From assembly GCF_058153355.1 (NCBI RefSeq), contig NZ_CM177019.1: a stretch of 64,000 nt of DNA; one strand, 5' to 3'. The position numbers and the translations under genes are program-made. Positions 6,131 through 30,278 of this stretch are shown here, in pieces; the stretch's first letter is position 1; each line of letters starts with the position of its first letter. The notes beneath the pieces are model-generated. The model did no database searches and was not told the DNA's origin. It worked only from the letters and a program-made list of their open reading frames with translations.

Positions 6131-6307
6131 TGTCGGATGCGGCGTAAACGCCTTATCCGACCTACGGTTTGCATCGTTGCAGGCCTGATAAGACGCGGCA
6201 AGCGTCGCATCAGGCAACGGCAGTCGGATGCGGCGCAGGCGCCTTATCTGACCTACGGTTTGTGTCGTGTAGGCCTGATAAGACGCGGCAAGCGTCGCAT
6301 CAGGCAT
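6131..6307. repeat. BIME/REP cluster (several inverted REP units)
   Basis: Repeated gcctgataagacgcg...cgtcgcatcaggc and cggatgcggcg...ccttatccg palindromic units. Confidence 0.85.
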
Positions 6308-14789: not shown

Positions 14790-15944
14790 TTATGCCTGCC
14801 ACGGATGAATGATTACGCCTTGCACCACGCGGTTAACGGTGCCGCTGGCTGATGGGGTATCCGGCGTATTGCCCATGTGCAGCGACTGCATCAGTGCAAA
14901 CGTCTGGGCGTACATCAGGAAGCAAAATGCCTGCTCAACGTCGATAAAGTGACGTGACGGCGGCAGGATGATATGTGGACCGGCGGTAATAACGTCGTTG
15001 CCTTCCGCGGCGATGGCGATTACGCTCATTGCCTGGTTGTCACGGCGGAGTTCTGCCAGCAGATCAAGATCATACTGACGCGTATAGGGGTGGCTGGAGA
15101 CAAACACCACCACCAGCGTTTCGTCATCGACCAGTGATTTAGGCCCATGACGGAATCCGGTCGGGGAATCATAAAAGGCCGCCAGTTTACCCGCCGTTAG
15201 TTCAAGCACTTTCAGCGCCGACTCGCGTGCTGCACCCTGTAATCCACCACTGCCGAGATAAACGATCCGTTTCCATGGTGCGTAACCAAACACACCTTCG
15301 CTGAAATCGCCCAGTGAGGTCAGGATTGCCTGGCAACGATCCGCTACGTCGCGGAAGGTCTGGCTATTGATTGTCTCAGGTGCGAAAACCGCGAGGCAGC
15401 TGGCCATCATAGTGGTAATGCTACTTGTCATCGCAAAGCCGCGATCGTGCGTTTCTGCGGGCATCAGCAGGGCAAACGCGTTGTCGCTGTTGATCGCGTT
15501 TTGGTAAAGAGCGCCCGCTTCGTTGCAGGTGATCGGCAGGTGATAGCATTCCGGTACAAACTGATTCGCCAGTTCCACGGCGGCGACGCTTTCCGGGCTG
15601 TTGCCAGATCGACCGAAGGAGATCAACAGCAGTGGATGCGCTGGATTCAGGTAGTCCATTGGATTGGTGACCAGATCGGTGGTCGGTACGGCGCTGACGT
15701 TTTTGCCGGTATGGCTGGCAAGCCACGGCGCGATGATGTCACCGATAAATGCCGAGGTTCCGGCTCCGGTCAGGATGATCCGCAGATTCTCTTTGCGCAG
15801 TAACGGTTCAAGGAAGTTATTGAGCGCTGTACGTAACGCGTCGATGTTGGTGAGTGAACGGATCCATGCGCGAGGCTGATGGCGGATCTCTTCTTCAGTC
15901 CATGTGCCGGTGGTGGCGGCCGCTGGGGTGTAATTTTCTGGCAT
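14790..15944 (-). CDS. agaS: SIS-domain sugar isomerase/deaminase AgaS
   Basis: 384 aa tandem-SIS protein. Confidence 0.9.
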   Translation of the reverse strand: MPENYTPAAATTGTWTEEEIRHQPRAWIRSLTNIDALRTALNNFLEPLLRKENLRIILTGAGTSAFIGDIIAPWLASHTGKNVSAVPTTDLVTNPMDYLNPAHPLLLISFGRSGNSPESVAAVELANQFVPECYHLPITCNEAGALYQNAINSDNAFALLMPAETHDRGFAMTSSITTMMASCLAVFAPETINSQTFRDVADRCQAILTSLGDFSEGVFGYAPWKRIVYLGSGGLQGAARESALKVLELTAGKLAAFYDSPTGFRHGPKSLVDDETLVVVFVSSHPYTRQYDLDLLAELRRDNQAMSVIAIAAEGNDVITAGPHIILPPSRHFIDVEQAFCFLMYAQTFALMQSLHMGNTPDTPSASGTVNRVVQGVIIHPWQA

Positions 15945-15989
15945 AACTCAATCCTTAGTCTGATGAACTTGACTTCCGGCATTGCAGGC

Positions 15990-16110
15990 TTTGCTTGCCT
16001 TTCGTTTCATTTCACTTGGTGATTCGTTTCGTTGATTAAAATCTATAGAAAAGAAATCGAAAGTTAAATGGGGAAAAAAGAAATAAAACGAAATTTGTGA
16101 TCGTTGAAAG
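15990..16110 (-). promoter_or_regulatory. agaS promoter region with AgaR operator-like TTTCGTTTCATTTC motifs
   Basis: tttcgtttcatttcac (16003-16018), ttcgtttcgttg, and complement of gaaataaaacgaaa match the recalled AgaR operator consensus. Confidence 0.5.
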
Positions 16111-16294
16111 AAAAGACAAGGGAAGATTAAAGGATTGCGTGATGACGTCGCTATGTGTACCGATTGCTGGAAGCGGCGTACCGTAGAGCGGATAAGACGC
16201 GCCAGCGTCGCATTCGACACCACTGCACAGATTAAAACGAAAGAAAAAGAAAGGCCTTACGGGGGAAGTGAAGGCCCAATAAAGGAGCAAACCA

Positions 16295-17428
16295 TCAAAA
16301 CGAAGCTAATTGACCCTGAATCCAGATTTGTTGCACATGCAGTCCGCTATCCAGCGCAACGACGCTGGCGCGTTTGCCCGGTTTAAGTGATCCCAAAACA
16401 CCATCAACACCCAGCATTCGCGCCGGATGCAGCGACGCCATATGGATGGCTTCCGCTGGCGTTACGCCCGTCAGCTCGACCATATTGCGAACAGCCGCAT
16501 CAACAGACAGCGTACTGCCCGCCAGTCCACCGGACGCGGTACGGACAACGCCGTCGTGCATCTGCACCTCTTCACCACATAACGTATATTGACCATCCGG
16601 CATCCCGGCTGCCTGCATCGCGTCGGTGATCAGCACGATTCTCTCTTTCGCACAGCAACAACACAGCGACATCGCCGCCGGATGTACATGATGCCCATCG
16701 GCTATCAATTCCAGCCAGGCGCGCTTGTCCGTTAAACCCGCGCCAACCATTCCCGGTTCGCGGTGATGTAATCCTGTCATCCCGTTATAGCAATGCACCA
16801 GGCCGTCGGCACCAACATCAAATGCGGCGCGGGTTTGTTGCCAGGTTGCTGCGCTATGTCCCAGCATTACCCGCACGTTCTGCTGTTTAAGATGACGAAT
16901 GGCTTGTAACGCGCCCGTTTTTTCCGGTGCCAGCGCCACCACGCGCAAGGTATGCCGTGAAACAGCAATCAATTGATCCAGCTCGGCAATTTCCAGCTCG
17001 CGAAACAGCTCCGGCGGATGTGCGCCTTTATTCTGCGGCGTGAAGTACGGTCCTTCGAGATAACTCCCCAGCACTTGCGCACCAGGTCCACCGCGCTGGC
17101 AGCGTAGAGCAATACGTTCCAGCGCCGCATGAATGGTATTAAGCGGCGCGGTTACGGTAGTCGGCAACCAACTGCCGACACCTTCCCGTGCCTTGTGCAT
17201 TGCCAGCTTGTCGAGCACATCCGGCGCGTCATCCATAACATCAACGCCCGCACCACCGTGTACATGGGTATCGATATAAGCGGGGCAGAGCAGTTCCGCA
17301 TCGCGTTCAGCCACGCCCACTGGAATCGGTTCGATTGCTGCAATTACACCGTCAGCAATATGCAACTGATGATCATCAAGCCAGCCCTCCTCAGTCAGCA
17401 GCCTTCTGGCGCGCAGAACGTGTGTCAT
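16295..17428 (-). CDS. agaA: N-acetylgalactosamine-6-phosphate deacetylase AgaA (full length)
   Basis: ORF 16295-17449; start at MTHVLRARRLL; NagA-like amidohydrolase. Confidence 0.85.
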   Translation of the reverse strand: MTHVLRARRLLTEEGWLDDHQLHIADGVIAAIEPIPVGVAERDAELLCPAYIDTHVHGGAGVDVMDDAPDVLDKLAMHKAREGVGSWLPTTVTAPLNTIHAALERIALRCQRGGPGAQVLGSYLEGPYFTPQNKGAHPPELFRELEIAELDQLIAVSRHTLRVVALAPEKTGALQAIRHLKQQNVRVMLGHSAATWQQTRAAFDVGADGLVHCYNGMTGLHHREPGMVGAGLTDKRAWLELIADGHHVHPAAMSLCCCCAKERIVLITDAMQAAGMPDGQYTLCGEEVQMHDGVVRTASGGLAGSTLSVDAAVRNMVELTGVTPAEAIHMASLHPARMLGVDGVLGSLKPGKRASVVALDSGLHVQQIWIQGQLASF

Positions 17429-17859
17429 ATTCCTTCCTCGACCGGACATTCTTCATGGCAGCGGCCTAACTCGTCCACCAGACTGGTCAGCCCACGGTGT
17501 CCACACTCCAGCGCCTGTACACGGAATTCTTCACCGCTTAACCCTTCGCGCTCCAGCACCATTTCCAGTAACAGTTGCAAATTGGTGCCGGTGATCACTT
17601 CATAGCCCGGTTTTTGCATCGCCAGCGTTGAAGCCACGCGAAACGGTGTGCCGCCCAGCAAATCTGTCAGAAAAACAATGCCGTCTTCACAATCCAGTTT
17701 GGCAATGGCTTCTTCAAGCTGCGATGTAAGCAGCGCAGTGCTTGAGGTTTCCGGAAAATCAATGGCGATAAACTGCGACTGCTCGCCGAGGATTTGCTTC
17801 ATTGCTTTTTCCATGCCGCTGGCAAATCCGCCATGCCCTGTCAAAATAATACTTAACAT
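17425..17859 (-). CDS. agaF: PTS N-acetylgalactosamine EIIA AgaF
   Basis: 144 aa mannose-family IIA. Confidence 0.85.
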   Translation of the reverse strand: MLSIILTGHGGFASGMEKAMKQILGEQSQFIAIDFPETSSTALLTSQLEEAIAKLDCEDGIVFLTDLLGGTPFRVASTLAMQKPGYEVITGTNLQLLLEMVLEREGLSGEEFRVQALECGHRGLTSLVDELGRCHEECPVEEGI

Positions 17860-21559: not shown

Positions 21560-22369
21560 ATGAGTAATACCGACGCTTCAGGCGAGAAGCGAGTGACAGG
21601 CACCAGCGAGCGACGAGAACAAATCATTCAGCGCCTGCGACAGCAAGGGAGTGTGCAGGTTAACGATCTGTCGGCATTGTATGGCGTATCTACTGTGACG
21701 ATCCGCAACGATCTGGCGTTTCTGGAAAAGCAGGGGATCGCTGTGCGGGCCTATGGCGGCGCGTTGATCTGCGATAGCACGACGCCGTCAGTCGAGCCAT
21801 CAGTGGAAGATAAAAGCGCGCTGAACACTGCGATGAAATGCAGCGTTGCGAAAGCTGCCGTTGAGTTGATTCAGCCAGGTCATCGGGTGATCCTCGATTC
21901 CGGGACCACCACGTTTGAGATTGCTCGTCTGATGCGCAAGCACACTGACGTAATTGCGATGACCAATGGTATGAACGTAGCCAATGCACTGCTGGAAGCA
22001 GAAGGCGTTGAACTTCTTATGACCGGCGGGCATCTGCGGCGTCAGTCGCAATCTTTTTACGGCGATCAGGCTGAACAATCGCTGCAAAATTACCACTTCG
22101 ATATGCTGTTTCTTGGTGTAGATGCGATCGATCTGGAGCGCGGTGTCAGCACGCATAATGAAGATGAAGCCCGTTTAAACCGTCGGATGTGCGAAGTTGC
22201 GGAACGGATCATCGTGGTCACCGATTCCAGTAAGTTCAACCGTTCCAGTTTACATAAGATCATTGATACTCAACGTATCGACATGATCATTGTTGATGAA
22301 GGCATTCCTGCGGATAGTCTGGAAGGACTGCGAAAGGCTGGGGTTGAAGTGATTCTGGTCGGGGAGTGA
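21560..22369 (+). CDS. agaR: DeoR-family repressor AgaR
   Basis: 269 aa, N-terminal HTH plus DeoR C-terminal sugar-binding domain. Confidence 0.9.
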
Positions 22370-22901
22370 GAAATGGTGCCCGTAGCTCAACACGGATGTG
22401 TTCGGCGGGCATTGTTCACTGTCCTTTTACAGCCTGTTTTCTGCTCAAATTAGAAGCTTCAGCAAAGGTAATGCAAATGCATTATTAACAGCAGAAAGCG
22501 CCAGAACCAACGAAAAAAGAGAGCATGTTTCCCATTTTGCGAGGCGCTTTCCAAATCACCCGCTCAGTCCCCTCGCGTTGCAGTGCTAAAAGCACTATTT
22601 TGCAAATTTGTGACCTTCTTCACTCTCCCAAAAGGCGGTGATCTCACGGTGGGGATCCACTTTCTGCTTTCGCTTTTCTGCCGTTAGCACTCGCTATTTC
22701 GGCATCTCTTCTTTTCACTTTTTCAGTTTGTCATTTTCATTTGCGGTCAACCGAAAGTTCTGGAGTCGATTTTTCCAGGTTTCAACGCCGTTGTCGCGTT
22801 CACAAATTCACTTCTTTTCTTCTGATGTAATGCATTCAAAAGAAAATGAAAGCTGCAAAATGCAAGAATGCAACTAAATACTTTTTCAGGGAGCGATAAA
22901 C

Positions 22902-23672
22902 ATGCTAGATAGCCTAAGACGCCGCGAACAAATCATTGATTTGTTATGTGCCCAGGGAAGCGTACGCGTTGAGCCGCTCAGCATCCATTTTGGTGTCTCA
23001 TCGGTCACGATCCGCAATGACTTACGGTATCTGGAGCAAAAAGGTTGCGTCATGCGTTCCTATGGCGGTGCCGTGTTGAATCAACACTTTGCGCTCGACA
23101 GACCCTTGCAGGATAAAGATCGCCTTAATCGTGATGTTAAAGTGCGAATTGCCGAAAAAGCGGCCAGTTTTGTCAAAGATGGCGATACATTAATTATCGA
23201 TTCTGGTTCAACGACCACGCTAATTCCCGCTTCGCTCAAAGGGCGTCGGGATTTAGTCGTCATGACGAATGCCTTGAATATCGCCTGGGAAATGGCCAGT
23301 TTTGAACGGGTGGATGTTATGATCCTTGGTGGAAATGTTCGCCAGAGCGTCTACTCCCTGTATGGGCCTTCGGCAGAACAACAACTCCGGCAGTATCGCT
23401 TTGATAAGCTGTTTCTGGGCGTGGACGGCTTTTGCCTTGAAGCAGGGATTACCACGCCACATCCGGGTGAGGCACATCTGAACCAGGTGATGTGCCAGGT
23501 TGCGCAGGAAATTACTGTTGTCGCGGACTCCAGTAAATTTGGCCGCAAAAGCTTCTGTATGATCGGTGAAGTGAGCGAGATAGATCGACTGATTACCGAT
23601 AGCGGTATTCCGGAGAATTACAAAGCAGCATTAACGCAAATGGGTGTGGAAGTTGTGATTGCTGATGAGTGA
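22902..23672 (+). CDS. DeoR-family transcriptional regulator, AgaR paralogue (accessory)
   Basis: 256 aa; N-terminus RREQIIDLLCAQGSVRVEPLSIHFGVSSVTIRNDLRYLEQKG parallels AgaR; good RBS (GGGAG). Confidence 0.85.
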   Translation: MLDSLRRREQIIDLLCAQGSVRVEPLSIHFGVSSVTIRNDLRYLEQKGCVMRSYGGAVLNQHFALDRPLQDKDRLNRDVKVRIAEKAASFVKDGDTLIIDSGSTTTLIPASLKGRRDLVVMTNALNIAWEMASFERVDVMILGGNVRQSVYSLYGPSAEQQLRQYRFDKLFLGVDGFCLEAGITTPHPGEAHLNQVMCQVAQEITVVADSSKFGRKSFCMIGEVSEIDRLITDSGIPENYKAALTQMGVEVVIADE

Positions 23673-23676
23673 GAAA

Positions 23677-23708
23677 ATGTGGCTGGAGATAAACGTCGCC
23701 AGCCACAT
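23677..23708. terminator. Hairpin between convergent DeoR regulator and ROK kinase genes
   Basis: tgtggctgg...ccagccaca inverted repeat. Confidence 0.4.
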
Positions 23709-23716
23709 TACGTTAT

Positions 23717-24628
23717 TCAGGTTGCATGTTCGATTTGCAGCAACGCCGCGCCTCGTACACCGCTCGTTGCTCCGTGAATGGCAGAAAATACGCGCGCAGG
23801 TTCCAGTCCAGGAAGAAGATAACGCGTCATAGCTTTCGGCAATAACGTGTAAATTTCTTTGAAGTTAGACACACCGCCGCCAAGAACAAATGCATCTACG
23901 TCGAGAATATGCTGCAACTGTGCCAGCGTACAACCAACCATATCTATCCAGGCGCTAATGGTGGTGATGGCACTGGGAACGCCACGTTGATGATTTTCTA
24001 ACAATGTCTCCATAGTGATTTGCTCATCGCTGAAATGCTTATGTAACCAGAGCAAGCCAGGACCGGACTGGTAGCGTTCCAGGCACCCTTGCAAACCGCA
24101 GCCGCATTGTAATTCAGGCAGGTTATAGCGCCGCGTAAATGTCGCCGGGAGCGGTAAATGGCCAAACTCGCAGGCCATACGGTTACGGCCACGGTACAAC
24201 TGGCCATCAATAACTAATCCCCCGCCCATACCCGTGCCGATAATCGCGCCAAAGATCCGACTATATTGACGAGCTTGATCGGTATGCGCTTCTGATAGGG
24301 CGAAGCAGCAGCAGTCATTATCCATTATTACCGGGCGGTTAAGGCGATTTGCCAGATCGGTTAACACCTGGCGTCCGGTCAGGCAGGGAACGTTAGAAGA
24401 CAACAGTTTACCGGTGTGCCGATCCATAACGCCGGGCATCCCGATACCTATTTTGCCTTGCGTACCCGTGGCCCAGTCAGCGGTATCAATCAGAGACACA
24501 AATGTGGATAGAAAAAGCGCGTAATCCTGAACAGGCGTAGCTACCCGCTTGCGCCAGCAAATTTGTAAATCCTGATCAAAGGCGACTATCTCTGTTTTGG
24601 TTCCACCAATATCAACACCGTAAAACAT
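23717..24628 (-). CDS. ROK-family sugar kinase, NagK-like
   Basis: 303 aa; DIGGTK N-terminus and CGCG..C zinc motif as in N-acetylglucosamine kinase. Confidence 0.85.
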   Translation of the reverse strand: MFYGVDIGGTKTEIVAFDQDLQICWRKRVATPVQDYALFLSTFVSLIDTADWATGTQGKIGIGMPGVMDRHTGKLLSSNVPCLTGRQVLTDLANRLNRPVIMDNDCCCFALSEAHTDQARQYSRIFGAIIGTGMGGGLVIDGQLYRGRNRMACEFGHLPLPATFTRRYNLPELQCGCGLQGCLERYQSGPGLLWLHKHFSDEQITMETLLENHQRGVPSAITTISAWIDMVGCTLAQLQHILDVDAFVLGGGVSNFKEIYTLLPKAMTRYLLPGLEPARVFSAIHGATSGVRGAALLQIEHAT

Positions 24629-24646
24629 CGCTCATCTCCTTTGGTT

Positions 24647-25903
24647 TCACAGCACAACCAGGGTATTTTCCTTGCGAGCGCGTTCGGCGGCAAAGACCAT
24701 TAAATGACTTTCGAGCGATTCATCTGGTCCTGAAAGGATCATCGCTCGATCGTCAGCCATCACGGCATGGATAAAGCTGTCCATCAGATAGTAATCACCA
24801 CCACCGTGCCCTCCCATTTGGGTGTGAGTGCCTGCGTTTTTCTCTTCAACGGTGTAAATAGTTTCCTGGTCGGTGAGAAAATCAAAACACCGAATGGTGT
24901 TGCCATCGCCTTCCAGATAACCTTTCGAACCGAAAACTCGGGTTTTGCGATCCTCCATTTTCGTAAAGGCTGTCATTGTAAAAGTGACGCTCTGCTGATG
25001 CGCAAACTGCATGTTTACCACTTGATGATCAACAACATCGTTATCGCAGCAATAAACACAGCGACCATAGGGGCCGTCACGCAGGGCCTGACGAATATTC
25101 TCTTCAGTAGGATTTGGTGTTAACACGTGGCGAAAGTGAAACGTACATTTATGGGCTTCGCCAGCATAAATTTTGCATGCGGACCACGGGCAGGTCGCTT
25201 CTGCCTGGCAATCGAGACAGCGTTCGGCTGCGCCTTCAGGTTGGTTTTGTTTTACAAAATGGTTGAGCCCGCCAAATGAGCTAACGGTTTTACAGTTGTC
25301 TCCCATGATGTAGCGGATCCAGTCCAGATCGTGGCAGGACTTTTGTAACAACATAAATGATGATTCAGCCTCGTTGCGCCAGTTACCACGCACAAAAGAG
25401 TGTGCCTGGTGCCAGTAACCGACGGGTTCGAGATGCTGCATACTGATAATGTCGCCAATGATGCCGCTATCGAGTAAGAATTTGAGTTTTTGTGTATATC
25501 GGGTGTAACGAAGAACGTGTGCGACGGCTAATAAGACATTATTGCGTTTGACGGCATCAATGATAATGCGGCAATCGTGCTCTGTTGGCGCGAGCGGTTT
25601 TTCCAACAGAATGTGGTAACCGAGATCGGCAAAAGCGACGGCCGGATCTCTATGCATATTGTCTTGCGTACAAATAAGTACAGCATCAGCCATTTTTGGC
25701 CGAGCAGCAGCCTCTTTCCAGTTGCTAAAAATATTATCTGTCGGGATCGTATGCCGGGACACAACTTGCTCGCGGTAAGCCTCTCTAGGTTCAGCAACAC
25801 CTACCACTTGCATTCTGTCCGGATGCTCAAGGGCATAGCGGGAATATATTTCTCCACGTGCGCCTGCACCTATTACTAAAACAGTGACTTTATTTTTACT
25901 CAT
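24647..25903 (-). CDS. Gfo/Idh/MocA-family NAD(P)-dependent oxidoreductase with Cys-rich insert
   Basis: 418 aa; Rossmann N-terminus (VLVIGAGARG), EKP motif, Cys cluster CLDCQAEATCPWSACK...CVYCC. Confidence 0.8.
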   Translation of the reverse strand: MSKNKVTVLVIGAGARGEIYSRYALEHPDRMQVVGVAEPREAYREQVVSRHTIPTDNIFSNWKEAAARPKMADAVLICTQDNMHRDPAVAFADLGYHILLEKPLAPTEHDCRIIIDAVKRNNVLLAVAHVLRYTRYTQKLKFLLDSGIIGDIISMQHLEPVGYWHQAHSFVRGNWRNEAESSFMLLQKSCHDLDWIRYIMGDNCKTVSSFGGLNHFVKQNQPEGAAERCLDCQAEATCPWSACKIYAGEAHKCTFHFRHVLTPNPTEENIRQALRDGPYGRCVYCCDNDVVDHQVVNMQFAHQQSVTFTMTAFTKMEDRKTRVFGSKGYLEGDGNTIRCFDFLTDQETIYTVEEKNAGTHTQMGGHGGGDYYLMDSFIHAVMADDRAMILSGPDESLESHLMVFAAERARKENTLVVL

Positions 25904-25945
25904 ATAAAGAAATACCTTTCTGATAAATTCATCTTAATTGCTACG

Positions 25946-26704
25946 TTATAAATTACGAAAACTAACAAGATGAAATCCGTGTTTTTCAATCGCATATTTG
26001 AGTGACGGTGTAGTCAGAACCGTAAGTTCTTCCAGCCGTTGATAGCAGTAACTGCTCGACATTAAGTGGTTATCTACGAATCCAGGGTGACACATAATTT
26101 CCAGCGATTTTTCATCACGTTTTATGGCGCTATCGAGGAGTGATAAAAAAAAGTCTTCTGAAATATTATTATCGTAGAAATTACTGCTGAATCCCTCACT
26201 ACTTTTGGCATCCAGCGAATCGATTTTTTTCTCTCGCAGAACAGAATGGTCTATACGTAATGGTAAATTTTTCTCACGCGCGAACCGCGCGACAACGGGA
26301 TAAACCTGCGGGATCATATGAACGCTGTGATGGCTGTCTAAATGGGTGGGCTCCCGTTTAAATACATCAATAAAACGTTGATATTGAGAACTCAGTTCCT
26401 GTTCAATTTCACCCGTGTTTAATTGCCCTTGCTCCGCGACATCCCAGATCCATTTACCTAATTGGCCTGCGCGTACCAGCGAAGGCATATCCGTTAAGGC
26501 GGCGCCATAGCTCAAAACAAAATGTAACCCGACGCCGAGCTGTGGGGTTTCGGCACTTAAAGAGGCAGCATGATCAATTGCCGGAGCATTCATCATCGCA
26601 GTTGTTGAGCGAACGACACCATTTCGTACTGCCTCGATAATTCCATAATTAATACCTTTACTTAGTCCAAAGTCATCCGCATTCACAATTAATAAGCGTT
26701 GCAT
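25946..26704 (-). CDS. YdjC-family carbohydrate deacetylase (ChbG-like)
   Basis: 252 aa; NADDFG and HLDSHHxVH motifs. Confidence 0.85.
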   Translation of the reverse strand: MQRLLIVNADDFGLSKGINYGIIEAVRNGVVRSTTAMMNAPAIDHAASLSAETPQLGVGLHFVLSYGAALTDMPSLVRAGQLGKWIWDVAEQGQLNTGEIEQELSSQYQRFIDVFKREPTHLDSHHSVHMIPQVYPVVARFAREKNLPLRIDHSVLREKKIDSLDAKSSEGFSSNFYDNNISEDFFLSLLDSAIKRDEKSLEIMCHPGFVDNHLMSSSYCYQRLEELTVLTTPSLKYAIEKHGFHLVSFRNL

Positions 26705-26716
26705 AAGGCGTCCTTG

Positions 26717-28069
26717 TTATTGATGAGATTGGGTAAGTTCAGCAATGGTGCTGGAAAATTGAGGCAGATGTTTTTTATGGGCAATGATCAGTTCACGTAC
26801 TAATTTTTCAGCGTCGTTATCCGAGGTCATTAGCGGGTTAAGGCACAGAGCCAGCAGCGTATCGTTATAGTTACCACTTATTGCCGCCCGGGCTGCCGCA
26901 ATCTCAAAACATTTGATTGAATGAATGAGCCCCAGTACATTTTCGTCAAAATGAGTGAGACGCGGGTGGGGGGTAACACCGTTATTCCCCAGAATGCAGG
27001 TCATTTCAACGGTCCAGTCTTCAGGGATATTTTTTACACTGCCCTTGTGTGGAATATTAACGTAGTGTTCTGTTTGCGTGTCATTATAAATTGCATTAAT
27101 AACGGCACAGGCTGCATCTGAATAATACGCACCACCACGCAGATCCAGTTCTTCAGGTTTTGTATTTAGTTCTGGGTTCTTATACAGCTCAAATAATTTT
27201 CTCTCTAATGCCTGCACGACTTGTGCACGAACGCCATTTTTATAAAATTCCCCCATCTCAATAGCGAGCATTTCTTTATGTTTAAAATAGTAACGTAAGT
27301 AAGCACAGGGCAGGAGATTAAGTGCCCGAATTAAATTAGGATTGAAGGTTAAACTGTCAATATTTTTGACGGTACTTCCTTCAAGCAAACCTTCAACGAC
27401 GCCATCGAGCAATTCAGCAAAACGTGATTGTCCATTGACCCATACGTCTTTAAGAAAGACCATATGATTTAAGCCAAATATGTCTATTGAAAGATCATCG
27501 TCCGCGCCAAGTTTTAGGGCATTGCGAACGAAGCTCTTCATCCCAATAGGGACATTACAGACACCGATAAACCGTTTAAATTGGGTATGGCGGTACACGG
27601 CTTCAGTAACCATCCCGGCAGGATTGGTAAAATTAATAATCCAGGCATCAGGGCAAAGTTCCTCAACATCTTTGATAATATCAAAAACTACTGGAATGGT
27701 TCGTAACCCGTTGAATAAACCGCCCGCGCCATTGGTTTCTTGCCCGAGATATCCCTGACTTAGTGGAATCAACTCATCCATTTCCCGAGCTTTTAATTGC
27801 CCGACCCGAAATTGTGTGGTGACAAAGTGCGCGCCCTGTAATGCAGCGCGACGGTCAAGTGTTTTCACTATTTTTAACGGAATGCCAGCTTTTATCACCA
27901 TCCGCTGACAAAGGTCGAAAATAATGTCCAGCTTTTCTTTGCCTTCTTCAATATCAACTAACCATAATTCACTGACCGGTAATTCATCGTAGCGTTTTAT
28001 GAATCCTTCAAGGAGTTCTGGTGTATAGCTACTGCCACCGCCAATAGTAACGATTTTTAAGTTTTTCAT
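26717..28069 (-). CDS. Glycoside hydrolase family 4 6-phospho-beta-glucosidase (ChbF-like)
   Basis: 450 aa; strong similarity to ChbF by recall (IGGGSSYTPELLEGFIKRY, NFTNPAGMVTEA). Confidence 0.9.
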   Translation of the reverse strand: MKNLKIVTIGGGSSYTPELLEGFIKRYDELPVSELWLVDIEEGKEKLDIIFDLCQRMVIKAGIPLKIVKTLDRRAALQGAHFVTTQFRVGQLKAREMDELIPLSQGYLGQETNGAGGLFNGLRTIPVVFDIIKDVEELCPDAWIINFTNPAGMVTEAVYRHTQFKRFIGVCNVPIGMKSFVRNALKLGADDDLSIDIFGLNHMVFLKDVWVNGQSRFAELLDGVVEGLLEGSTVKNIDSLTFNPNLIRALNLLPCAYLRYYFKHKEMLAIEMGEFYKNGVRAQVVQALERKLFELYKNPELNTKPEELDLRGGAYYSDAACAVINAIYNDTQTEHYVNIPHKGSVKNIPEDWTVEMTCILGNNGVTPHPRLTHFDENVLGLIHSIKCFEIAAARAAISGNYNDTLLALCLNPLMTSDNDAEKLVRELIIAHKKHLPQFSSTIAELTQSHQ

Positions 28070-28145
28070 GTTACTTCCATACTCAATATTAAATTGACTT
28101 GTGATGCCATGGTTTATCTAAACGCTGGCATGATGAAGCGTGCTA

Positions 28146-29506
28146 TTAAAACTTTAATGCATTGGCAATGTCTTCTTCGCTTTCTTGTTTAATTATTTCA
28201 ACTTGTGCTTTGTTTGAGATAATGACAAAGGGAAGATAAACCATTGTGGCAACACCTAAGTTAAAGAGCGCCAGGAGTAATCCAGCAATGCTTCCATTCG
28301 AGCTAAAGAACGCATTGAGTCCAGGAGGCATGGTCCAGGGGGCAATATTTGTTGATGGCGGAATAATACCCATGTTATAGGCGATTAAGGTAATCCCGGC
28401 GAGAATGGGTTGAATCATCACAAACGGGATTAACATAATGGGGTTCATAATGATCGGCAAACCAAATAAAATAGGTTCGTTGATATTAAAGATACCAGAA
28501 GGTAACGCTAATTTAGCAACCTGACGATAATCTTCCCGGCGTGACGCAATGAAAATGGCGAAAATGAGTCCCAGCGTTGCCCCTGTTCCACCGAGGAACA
28601 CGTAAGCGTCAAGCATTGGCCCGGTCCAGAAATGGAAGGTTTTTCCTGCTTCCAGTGCCGCTTGTACTGAACCATATTGTGTATAGGTGGCGATATTCTC
28701 CAGTCCCCACGGACCCAACGTGCTGCTTTGCAACGCGGTTAATACTAAGCCGCCGTGGATACCAAAGAACCATAACAGGGAATTAAAGACAACGAATGTC
28801 CAGCCAACAATACCGCTCATTGACGTTAATGGCGTAGCCAGTGAGGTGATAATGACCTGATGGAAATTGGTGCCATATATCGACAATATCCCAGACAAAC
28901 TACCCATAATTAACAGGATGATAAACCCGGGCACCATTGCTGAGAATGAGCGTGATACTGCGGCCGGAACACTCGCGGGCAACCGAATCACCCAGTTGCG
29001 GCGGATAATAAAAGCGAAAATTTCCGCTACAACTAATCCAATGATCATACCAGACAGAATATTGGCGCCGCCTAACCAGTTTGCACCAATGACATTAGCG
29101 GTTTCTCCTGCCTTGAAGGGGGTGACAGTCATAAACGCTGCGACAGAGAGTAAGCCAACGGATAACGAATCAACTTTCCGTTCTTCGGCCAACCCCATCC
29201 CAATAAAAAAGGGGGTCATGAGTGACATAATGCCCAGCGTGCCATGATAAGCACTGTCACCGACGACGGTGAAGGCGCTTAAGGTTTTTATGGTCGATGG
29301 TTCCAGTCGGACGCCTAATGAATAAAAAAGGAGCCTTCGCCAAAATCTAAAAAAACGCTATTAATGAGGACAAATAACGTACCGGCTAACGTTAATGGCA
29401 TCATACGGATAAAACCGTTTTTTATTGCATTGACGTGAGGTTGTTTCCCTAATTTAACTGCAAAAGGAAGAATGAGTTTTTCAAGTAACGCCATCACTCC
29501 GGGCAT
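28146..29506 (-). pseudogene. PTS lactose/cellobiose-family EIIC (ChbC-like) split by a frameshift
   Basis: N-terminal 63 aa (29506-29315, ...[12 protein letters not shown]) and C-terminal 360 aa (from 29228) are in different frames; the second frame reads FYSLGVRLE... upstream to the junction. Confidence 0.75.
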
Positions 29507-29575
29507 AAAAATATCCTTATATACCGATTAATGTATCACTGCGACTTTGGTTTTATTAATATCCTGTTGCTATGG

Positions 29576-29893
29576 TTACTTTTGCTCTTTTTTTATTATG
29601 GCGATAGCTGATTTTAGAACACCTAAGCCATCAATTTTTCCATATAACATTGAATCAATAACTTCCACTGGCTTTCCTGGTAATAAGCTTTGGATCTCTG
29701 ATTGCATGTAAGCAATTTGAGGTCCCAATAATATAACATCGGCTTCCGGCCCTTTCTCTGCGGCAACAGATTCGGAGAATGCTTCGATAATTACTGGCAC
29801 ATCATATTTTATCGCCTGCACTTTCATTTTTGACACCAGCAGTGATGTTGACATTCCCGCTGAACAAAATAAGTATATTTTTTTCTTTTCCAT
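29576..29893 (-). CDS. PTS lactose/cellobiose-family EIIB (ChbB-like)
   Basis: ORF 29576-30109; start at [20 protein letters not shown] (phospho-Cys motif), ~105 aa. Confidence 0.85.
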
Positions 29894-30278
29894 AGGGACT
29901 CCAGATATATTACGTAATAATATATTTGTCATGCCATGAATGGCATATGAGGCGACTTTAATTAAAAAGGCACGGATGTTTATATTGATTTCCTGAATGT
30001 CGTCTTTTGGTATTAATCTCAAAAATTTCAGGAGCCATTGAATAATCTGGTTTATAGGATTGAATGTCAAGAGAGTGAAATTGTGGGCGTGTTGTAATAA
30101 AAATAGCACGGCTTTCGGTAGGTTTCTTTTTTAGCGGAATGAAAAGTACAGGCAAAATGGTAATTGAATAAATTAACGTTTTTTCAATAGATTACGTTTT
30201 TTCCTGCCTACAGGAATGAAAAAAACAACAATCTAAAAATACTTTAGATATGTGAGAGTTATCACTTACTTTTCGTGG

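Follow-up and report, generated by a model that had tools for sequence, protein, structure and literature searches.

Repressors of the DeoR/GlpR family act elsewhere through several operators that cooperate by DNA looping, as DeoR does at deo and GlpR at glpD and glpTQ. The closest described system to the locus considered here is the aga/gam regulon of Escherichia coli, whose second promoter, PS, is repressed by AgaR (Ray & Larson 2004, as cited in passages of PMC3668189 and PMC4694137). N-acetylgalactosamine (GalNAc) induces a PS-lacZ fusion ~20-fold and agaS 60- to 500-fold (PMC3668189); the relevant passage of PMC4694137 agrees on the internal PS promoter, citing Ray & Larson 2004. In K-12, binding of AgaR is reported to be released by growth on GalNAc or GalN (Ray & Larson 2004, via passages of PMC3668189 and PMC4694137). 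The existence of PS, the binding of AgaR and the induction by GalNAc have been shown elsewhere, in E. coli K-12, C and O157. Three further papers (PMC8667592, PMC9189660, PMC3946193) mention AgaR or agaS, without giving site sequences or start sites.

A second type of element is also relevant to this locus. REPs, or palindromic units, are defined by an imperfect palindrome of 20-40 nt that is flanked by a GTAG/CTAC tetranucleotide (passages of PMC3333891), and they are the specific insertion targets of IS1397 (PMC1525189).

Throughout, the window is the whole stretch of DNA that was analysed, 64,000 nucleotides in length. According to the ORF boundaries, positions 15945-16294 comprise the 350-bp agaA-agaS spacer, no more and no less. 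An earlier note on this DNA had identified the stretch as this spacer, and the ORF coordinates and NCBIfam assignments (Table 1) agree. The aga genes, and the functional orientation of the signals in the spacer, are on the minus strand of the window. The same note had proposed an AgaR-controlled internal promoter for agaS-kbaY-agaBCDI; this promoter is PS, and the proposal was both correct and already published, since PMC3668189 and PMC4694137 describe it. Motif statistics and cross-genus conservation point the same way. The biology of the spacer is that of the known PS/AgaR system; nothing about it is new. The locus is orthologous to that of the E. coli aga/gam regulon and has the same gene order, its operator and promoter blocks are identical or nearly so to those of K-12, and perfect or one-mismatch matches to the AgaR consensus are found where expected. 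It differs from K-12 in being a rare haplotype with a private G-to-T change in the −35 element and one more copy of TTTCGTT where the start is predicted, and in having a full-length agaA upstream, where K-12 has a truncated agaA'. Taken as a whole, the spacer is very probably the junction of two operons, comprising a terminator, a REP, PS and sites for repression by AgaR.

Table 1. Features of the agaA-agaS region, in window coordinates; distances preceded by a sign are relative to the predicted start of PS.
Feature	Position	Strand	Remarks
agaS ORF	14790-15944	minus	NCBIfam: AgaS family, 631 bits
Shine-Dalgarno AAGGA of agaS	15952-15956	minus	7 nt before the ATG at 15944; read from the sequence
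AgaR operator d, TGCCTTTCGTTTCATTTCACTTGG	15996-16019	plus	0 mismatches to 24-nt consensus; ~+15 to +38, in the agaS leader
Predicted −10 of PS, TAGATT	16040-16045	minus	TAnATT in 62/62 loci, at a fixed distance from operator b
AgaR operator c, TAACTTTCGATTTCTTTTCTATAG	16043-16066	minus	4 mismatches; ~−33 to −10, fills the −35/−10 spacer
Predicted −35 of PS	16063-16068	minus	TTTAAC here; TTGAAC in other E. coli
AgaR operator b, CAAATTTCGTTTTATTTCTTTTTT	16074-16097	minus	1 mismatch to 24-nt consensus; ~−64 to −41, upstream of the −35
Half-REP remnant, ACGCCGCTTCCAGCAATCGG	16160-16179	minus	Right half of a second, inverted REP; from alignment of 7 E. coli haplotypes
REP (palindromic unit)	16183-16221	plus	GTAG at 16183-16186, then the imperfect palindrome AGCGGATAAGACGCGCCAGCGTCGCATTCGACACC
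Distal AgaR-like TTTC repeat, GGCCTTTCTTTTTCTTTCGTTTTA	16233-16256	minus	4 mismatches; ~−223 to −200; candidate auxiliary operator
Terminator-like element	16234-16277	minus	Hairpin and T-tract directly after the agaA stop
agaA ORF	16295-17449	minus	NCBIfam: NagA-type deacetylase
agaR	21560-22369	plus	574 bits to NF007316; 464 bits to NF040755

Of 5426 complete E. coli genomes, 5312 contain the spacer, each in a single copy. The allele in the window is rare; it is matched at an identity of at least 98.6% in only 18 of these 5312 genomes, and at 80-95% in the rest. For agaS, an identity of at least 99% is seen in 4 E. coli genomes, and one of 90-95% in 3702. The closest strain by spacer sequence is 2020CK-00188, where kbaY is followed by malX and malY-like genes instead of agaBCDI. 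In an alignment of seven divergent E. coli haplotypes, both ends of the spacer (the first ~130 nt after agaA and the last ~190 nt before agaS) are near-invariant, and the middle varies; the operator and promoter blocks are invariant in all seven, unlike the REP region. These comparisons also bear on the three ORFs of 83-91 aa that a mechanical ORF list places in the spacer (15948-16223 and 16036-16290 on the minus strand, 16135-16386 on the plus strand), any of which might be taken to encode a small protein. Such a product is hardly credible: haplotypes such as E. coli W and SCU-122 differ by single-base indels, other genera lack the corresponding region or have different sequence in its place, each of the three ORFs runs through the variable REP region or through sequence flanking it, and the RefSeq annotations contain no gene in the spacer.

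For scoring AgaR sites, the sequence WRMMTTTCRTTTYRTTTYNYTTKK was used, which we take to be the 24-nt consensus of Ray & Larson 2004; this assumption gains indirect support from the fact that its two perfect matches fall in the two aga regions where they are expected. Allowing up to 4 mismatches, there are four matches in the spacer, with 0, 1, 4 and 4 mismatches, where at least three repeat motifs had been noted earlier. The kbaZ-agaR region has five more, one of them perfect, and the remaining ~63 kb of the 64-kb window has no such match. In terms of the shorter motif TTTCGTTTYATTTC, the spacer has two exact copies, at 16000-16013 (plus strand) and 16080-16093 (minus strand), and degenerate copies in operator c and in the distal repeat. 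The 14-mer core TTTCRTTTYRTTTY, with at most 1 mismatch, occurs 10 times in the window against 0.95 times expected from dinucleotide-preserving shuffles, none of 100 of which reaches 10; 7 of the 10 core matches are in the two aga regulatory regions (2 in the spacer, 5 in kbaZ-agaR). It could be argued that TTTC motifs are merely what T-rich, low-complexity intergenic DNA without specific function looks like, and the spacer is indeed A+T-richer than the window (42.6% versus 49.2% GC). Yet this excess over shuffles, the confinement of the consensus matches to the two aga promoter regions, the occurrence of identical motifs at fixed spacing in distant genera, and the published binding of AgaR (passages of PMC3668189 and PMC4694137) leave this explanation with next to no probability.

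Like the characterised AgaR operators, the sites in the spacer are located at the promoter of an aga operon, directly upstream of agaS, and an agaR gene is in the neighbourhood. The core of operator b is identical in 17 of 17 aligned genera, although part of this agreement is by construction, because the set of loci was picked with a degenerate form of the core. Operator c coincides with the sequence between the predicted hexamers, TTTCGATTTCTTTTCTA, which is conserved in the cross-genus alignment, and operator d is inverted relative to b and c. The layout of the three is the classic arrangement for occlusion of a promoter, and AgaR probably acts by this mechanism here. AgaR sites reportedly lie upstream of the transcription start sites, and operator d fits this description poorly, since it is predicted to lie downstream of the start. 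The predicted start itself is covered by a haplotype-specific stretch (16020-16036) that reads AACGAAACGAAT here and AACGAAAGACAT in K-12 and most E. coli; the variant form adds an extra TTTCGTT half-repeat on the plus strand.

The arrangement of operators b and d can be followed well beyond E. coli. One genome per species was scanned for an inverted operator pair of the form TTTCRTTTYRTTTY-N50-80-RAAAYRAAAYGAAA; this returned 79 stretches, of which ~62 are directly upstream of an agaS homologue in Enterobacterales, with agaA upstream in most cases. The genera include Citrobacter, Enterobacter, Klebsiella, Raoultella, Kluyvera, Yersinia, Buttiauxella and Trabulsiella, and the pair also precedes agaS in Salmonella arizonae and diarizonae. 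Because these ~62 loci were found by the motif pair itself, they demonstrate the breadth of the architecture, not its frequency or rate of absence. In nearly all of them, operators b and d are 65-67 nt apart; as gaps of 50-80 nt were allowed, this tightness is an observation and not an effect of selection. The interval between the agaA stop codon and operator b varies more: it spans 95-96 nt in Enterobacter and Lelliottia and 201 nt in Escherichia, and Citrobacter, Klebsiella, Kluyvera, Salmonella and Yersinia are intermediate (~142-155 nt). It is the REP region that accounts for the additional DNA of Escherichia.

Besides the TTTC repeats, the blocks conserved in the cross-genus alignment are ATTGAAC and CTATAGATTTT, together with CTAAGGA ahead of agaS, which is kept between genera. 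The first two blocks bear on where the hexamers of PS were placed. Of 62 Enterobacterales loci, 59 have a hexamer beginning with TTG at a distance of 17 nt upstream of TAnATT, and in 37 of these it is TTGAAC. On this sequence basis, PS is predicted to start near 16033, with a leader of ~89 nt. A generic sigma-70 scan with a 9-of-12 threshold detected no promoter in the spacer. In other E. coli, TTGAAC-17-TAGATT agrees with the consensus at 8 of 12 positions; in the window, TTTAAC-17-TAGATT agrees at only 7 of 12, because of the private TTTAAC. Neither the responsible G-to-T change at 16066 nor a T-to-C change at 16072 is seen in the four closest E. coli genomes or in any aligned genus. The TTTAAC form may reflect a sequencing error or, if genuine, a mutation that lowers promoter activity. 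The conserved GATCACA ahead of operator b was considered as a possible CRP site and rejected, as by eye its left half-site is poor; published reports of CRP dependence concern, to our knowledge, only the agaZ promoter. The Cappable-seq supplements (PMC4782308), searched with the coordinates of either version, list no start site near agaS; these lists may be incomplete, or the gene may not be expressed in the conditions represented there.

On the other side of the spacer, a stem-loop (16277-16252, minus strand) with the arms GGGCCUUCAC...GUAAGGCCU is found 17 nt past the agaA stop codon, and it is followed by the T-rich tract UUUCUUUUUCUUUCGUUUU (16252-16234, minus strand). The hairpin folds at −10.2 kcal/mol (z −2.84), and none of 200 shuffles folds as well. 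A hairpin with a T-tract follows agaA in all genera compared, and it occupies the same place in 47 distinct Enterobacterales sequences. The sequences of the stem differ by genus, for example GGTTTGTGGC/GCCACAAACC in Yersinia and GGTCTGCCA/TGGCAGATC in Buttiauxella. Across 24 sequences, 90.8% of the hairpin cells are paired, against 75.9% in shuffles (none of 500 reaches the observed value) and 31-60% in slid controls. Double-sided changes number 19 cells in the same set, against 5.6 in shuffles (again, none of 500 reaches 19), and they affect 4 of the 5 stem pairs. The element is likely to be a structured RNA and, most simply, the intrinsic terminator of kbaZ-agaVWEFA, as judged from covariation and folding; a terminator at this point fits the published two-operon organisation. 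Like known Rho-independent terminators, it combines a G+C-rich hairpin, showing stem covariation, with a U-rich tract close behind the stop codon; unlike them, its U-tract is broken by conserved C residues that form TTTC repeats. A terminator scan with a loop limit of 8 nt missed this hairpin, probably because the loop closed by its uninterrupted outer stem exceeds that size. The same scan proposed a hairpin in the leader (15984-15998, plus strand) that was rejected, being haplotype-specific and at chance level (2 found, 1.0 expected).

Between this hairpin and the promoter is the REP. The earlier note had mentioned a REP-like palindrome, and gcggataagacgcgccagcgtcgcattcgac at 16188-16218 (plus strand) is indeed a true REP; read along the aga sense strand, it is an iREP with CTAC at its end, and its subtype may be z2-like. 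Its inner stem, GACGC/GCGTC, is intact, and its outer stem is degenerate, with 2 mismatches. In the window, the element folds no better than shuffled sequence (z −0.74). At E ≤1, the 41-nt region 16184-16224 matches E. coli genomes at 133,693 places altogether (median 23 per genome), and both the window and K-12 have partial copies of the REP in other intergenic stretches. A search against Rfam gave nothing beyond a sub-threshold match to the REP-derived naRNA4 (20.8 bits versus a gathering score of 59.5). In keeping with other E. coli REPs and BIMEs, the element combines GTAG/CTAC with an imperfect palindrome, has tens of related copies per genome, is extragenic (between a stop codon and a promoter), and its orthologous copy is a target of IS1397. 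This orthologous copy, located between the agaA terminator and PS in strain L1PEag1, has IS1397 in its loop, with TAA on either side of the insertion.

Several further REP-like sequences were seen in the window. Clusters with partial matches to the spacer REP are located at 6150-6300, 51515-51592 and 55929-56120; that at ~6150-6300 resembles a multi-unit BIME. In addition, the REP core at 16197-16210 has an identical 14-nt counterpart, CGACGCTGGCGCGT, ~150 nt away at 16360-16373 (plus strand), inside agaA at the 3' end of its coding sequence. This counterpart is also present in K-12 and 2020CK-00188, and it may be due to chance (E 0.014).

The state of the REP region differs between strains. 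In K-12, O157 and the SCU-122 haplotype, a second, inverted REP is intact, so that the two form a BIME; the K-12 pair folds at −42.1 kcal/mol (z −4.85). In contrast to the inverted pair of K-12 and O157, the window has a single unit, which is degenerate, and a half-remnant; E. coli W and GTEN_23 likewise have one REP and a half-remnant. An inverted partner of the kind that makes a BIME is represented in the window by the half-remnant only; BIMEs are a frequent, not an obligatory, context of REPs. Among the Enterobacterales genera compared, a REP within the agaA-agaS spacer is limited to Escherichia. In the RefSeq feature table of K-12, the 63 kb of NC_000913.3 from 3277000 to 3340000 are without any REP repeat_region entry; because this holds for the whole region, the absence of an annotated REP at agaA-agaS is uninformative. 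The REP in the spacer is a real, lineage-specific, decaying repeat.

The earlier note had further assigned to the REP the role of an upstream terminator or insulator, and this part is not supported. If the REP itself were the functional boundary between the agaA transcript and the agaS promoter, its position between two operons would make sense, as would the very stable hairpin of the inverted pair in K-12; REPs and BIMEs have also been reported as terminators, mRNA stabilisers and topological insulators (passages of PMC3333891). However, all Enterobacterales spacers that were compared retain the separate hairpin and T-tract, and only those of Escherichia contain a REP. Within E. coli, moreover, the REP is polymorphic, one strain has IS1397 inside it, and the version in the window is single, has a mismatched outer stem and folds no better than chance. 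It is improbable that the REP is the element that separates the two transcripts, and the conserved hairpin after agaA is the preferred candidate; the REP may make a small contribution to RNA stability or to supercoil insulation.

The distal AgaR-like repeat overlaps the T-tract of the terminator, which reads TTTC-TTTTC-CTTTC. The corresponding sequence, TTTCNTTTYNTTTY, scores 13-14 out of 14 in all 47 distinct loci, with conserved C positions. The distances from this repeat to operator b fall into tight classes of 47, 97-103 (mode 101-102, in very different genera) and 159 bp, which differ by 55 and 57 bp. The T-rich tail of the terminator might thus have a second function, that of a distal operator for AgaR which cooperates by looping with the promoter-proximal ones; a REP would be tolerated in between because its insertion kept the spacing workable. 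Conserved C positions in 47 of 47 loci would be needless for a plain U-tract, and the distance classes are tight although the intervening sequence is poorly conserved. Furthermore, the helical repeat of DNA in vivo is near 11.2 bp, and at this value differences of 55 and 57 bp amount to about five helical turns. On the other hand, the distal site departs from the 24-nt consensus at 4 positions, both core spacer positions having Y where R is expected, and T-richness is to be expected beside a terminator. If a turn is taken as 10.5 bp, the three classes are out of phase (resultant length 0.25 over the distinct distances), and three classes that are shared by descent make for weak statistics. Looping from the terminator tail to the promoter-proximal operators is therefore a minority reading, if one with somewhat better prospects than a terminating REP. 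Its fullest form, in which the stretch 16233-16256 would serve as a U-tract in RNA and as a looping AgaR operator in DNA, with the Escherichia REP/BIME insertion and the 47, ~102 and 159 bp classes of other genera tolerated because each step shifts the operators by about five turns, is doubtful and to be placed at the lower end of that range. Looping by AgaR has not been found demonstrated in the literature. By analogy with multi-operator repression by DeoR and GlpR, the locus would share tandem and inverted operators around and downstream of the promoter and, possibly, a distant auxiliary site; it differs from those systems in its repeat unit, which for AgaR is of the TTTC pentamer type.

The window harbours a second member of the AgaR family, located outside the spacer. 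An island of ~7.7 kb (22640-30109) is found between agaR and garD, where K-12 has yhaV-prlF. It opens with a gene for a repressor of the AgaR family (22902-23672, plus strand; 365 bits to NF040755 versus a cutoff of 260) that has 44% identity to AgaR and a nearly identical recognition helix, and a TTTC/GAAA-rich region (22640-22890) is located ahead of this gene. On the minus strand, the island contains genes for a ROK kinase, a Gfo/Idh/MocA oxidoreductase, a ChbG-like deacetylase, a GH4-like glycosidase, a chitobiose-type PTS IIC component and a IIB component; the IIC ORF matches positions 94-452 of its profile only and may be N-terminally truncated. Cross-talk with the AgaR operators is conceivable.

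The two-operon reading of the spacer can be formulated as follows. On the minus strand, the spacer would be the junction of two operons and consist of four parts. First, the conserved hairpin and its T-rich tail most likely end the kbaZ-agaVWEFA transcript. Second comes the Escherichia-specific REP/BIME, present here as a degenerate REP and a remnant, which would be a selfish or architectural insertion that the conserved design does not need. Third, PS, a predicted sigma-70 promoter with a 17-nt spacer between its hexamers, would drive agaS-kbaY-agaBCDI. Fourth, the DeoR-family repressor AgaR would bind the TTTC-repeat operators b, c and d around PS and, when bound, would occlude or trap RNA polymerase, a repression that is relieved when the cells grow on GalNAc or GalN.

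The significance of these findings is small, since the locus is a textbook-style junction of two catabolic operons whose promoter and repressor were characterised in 2004. The gain is a corrected anatomy: the signals are on the minus strand, the conserved hairpin is the likely terminator, and the REP is a decaying, lineage-specific insertion. For those who study the use of GalNAc by E. coli, two points may be of interest, namely the tail of the terminator as a possible auxiliary site for AgaR, and the private change in the −35 element, which may weaken expression of agaS-kbaY-agaBCDI in this strain.
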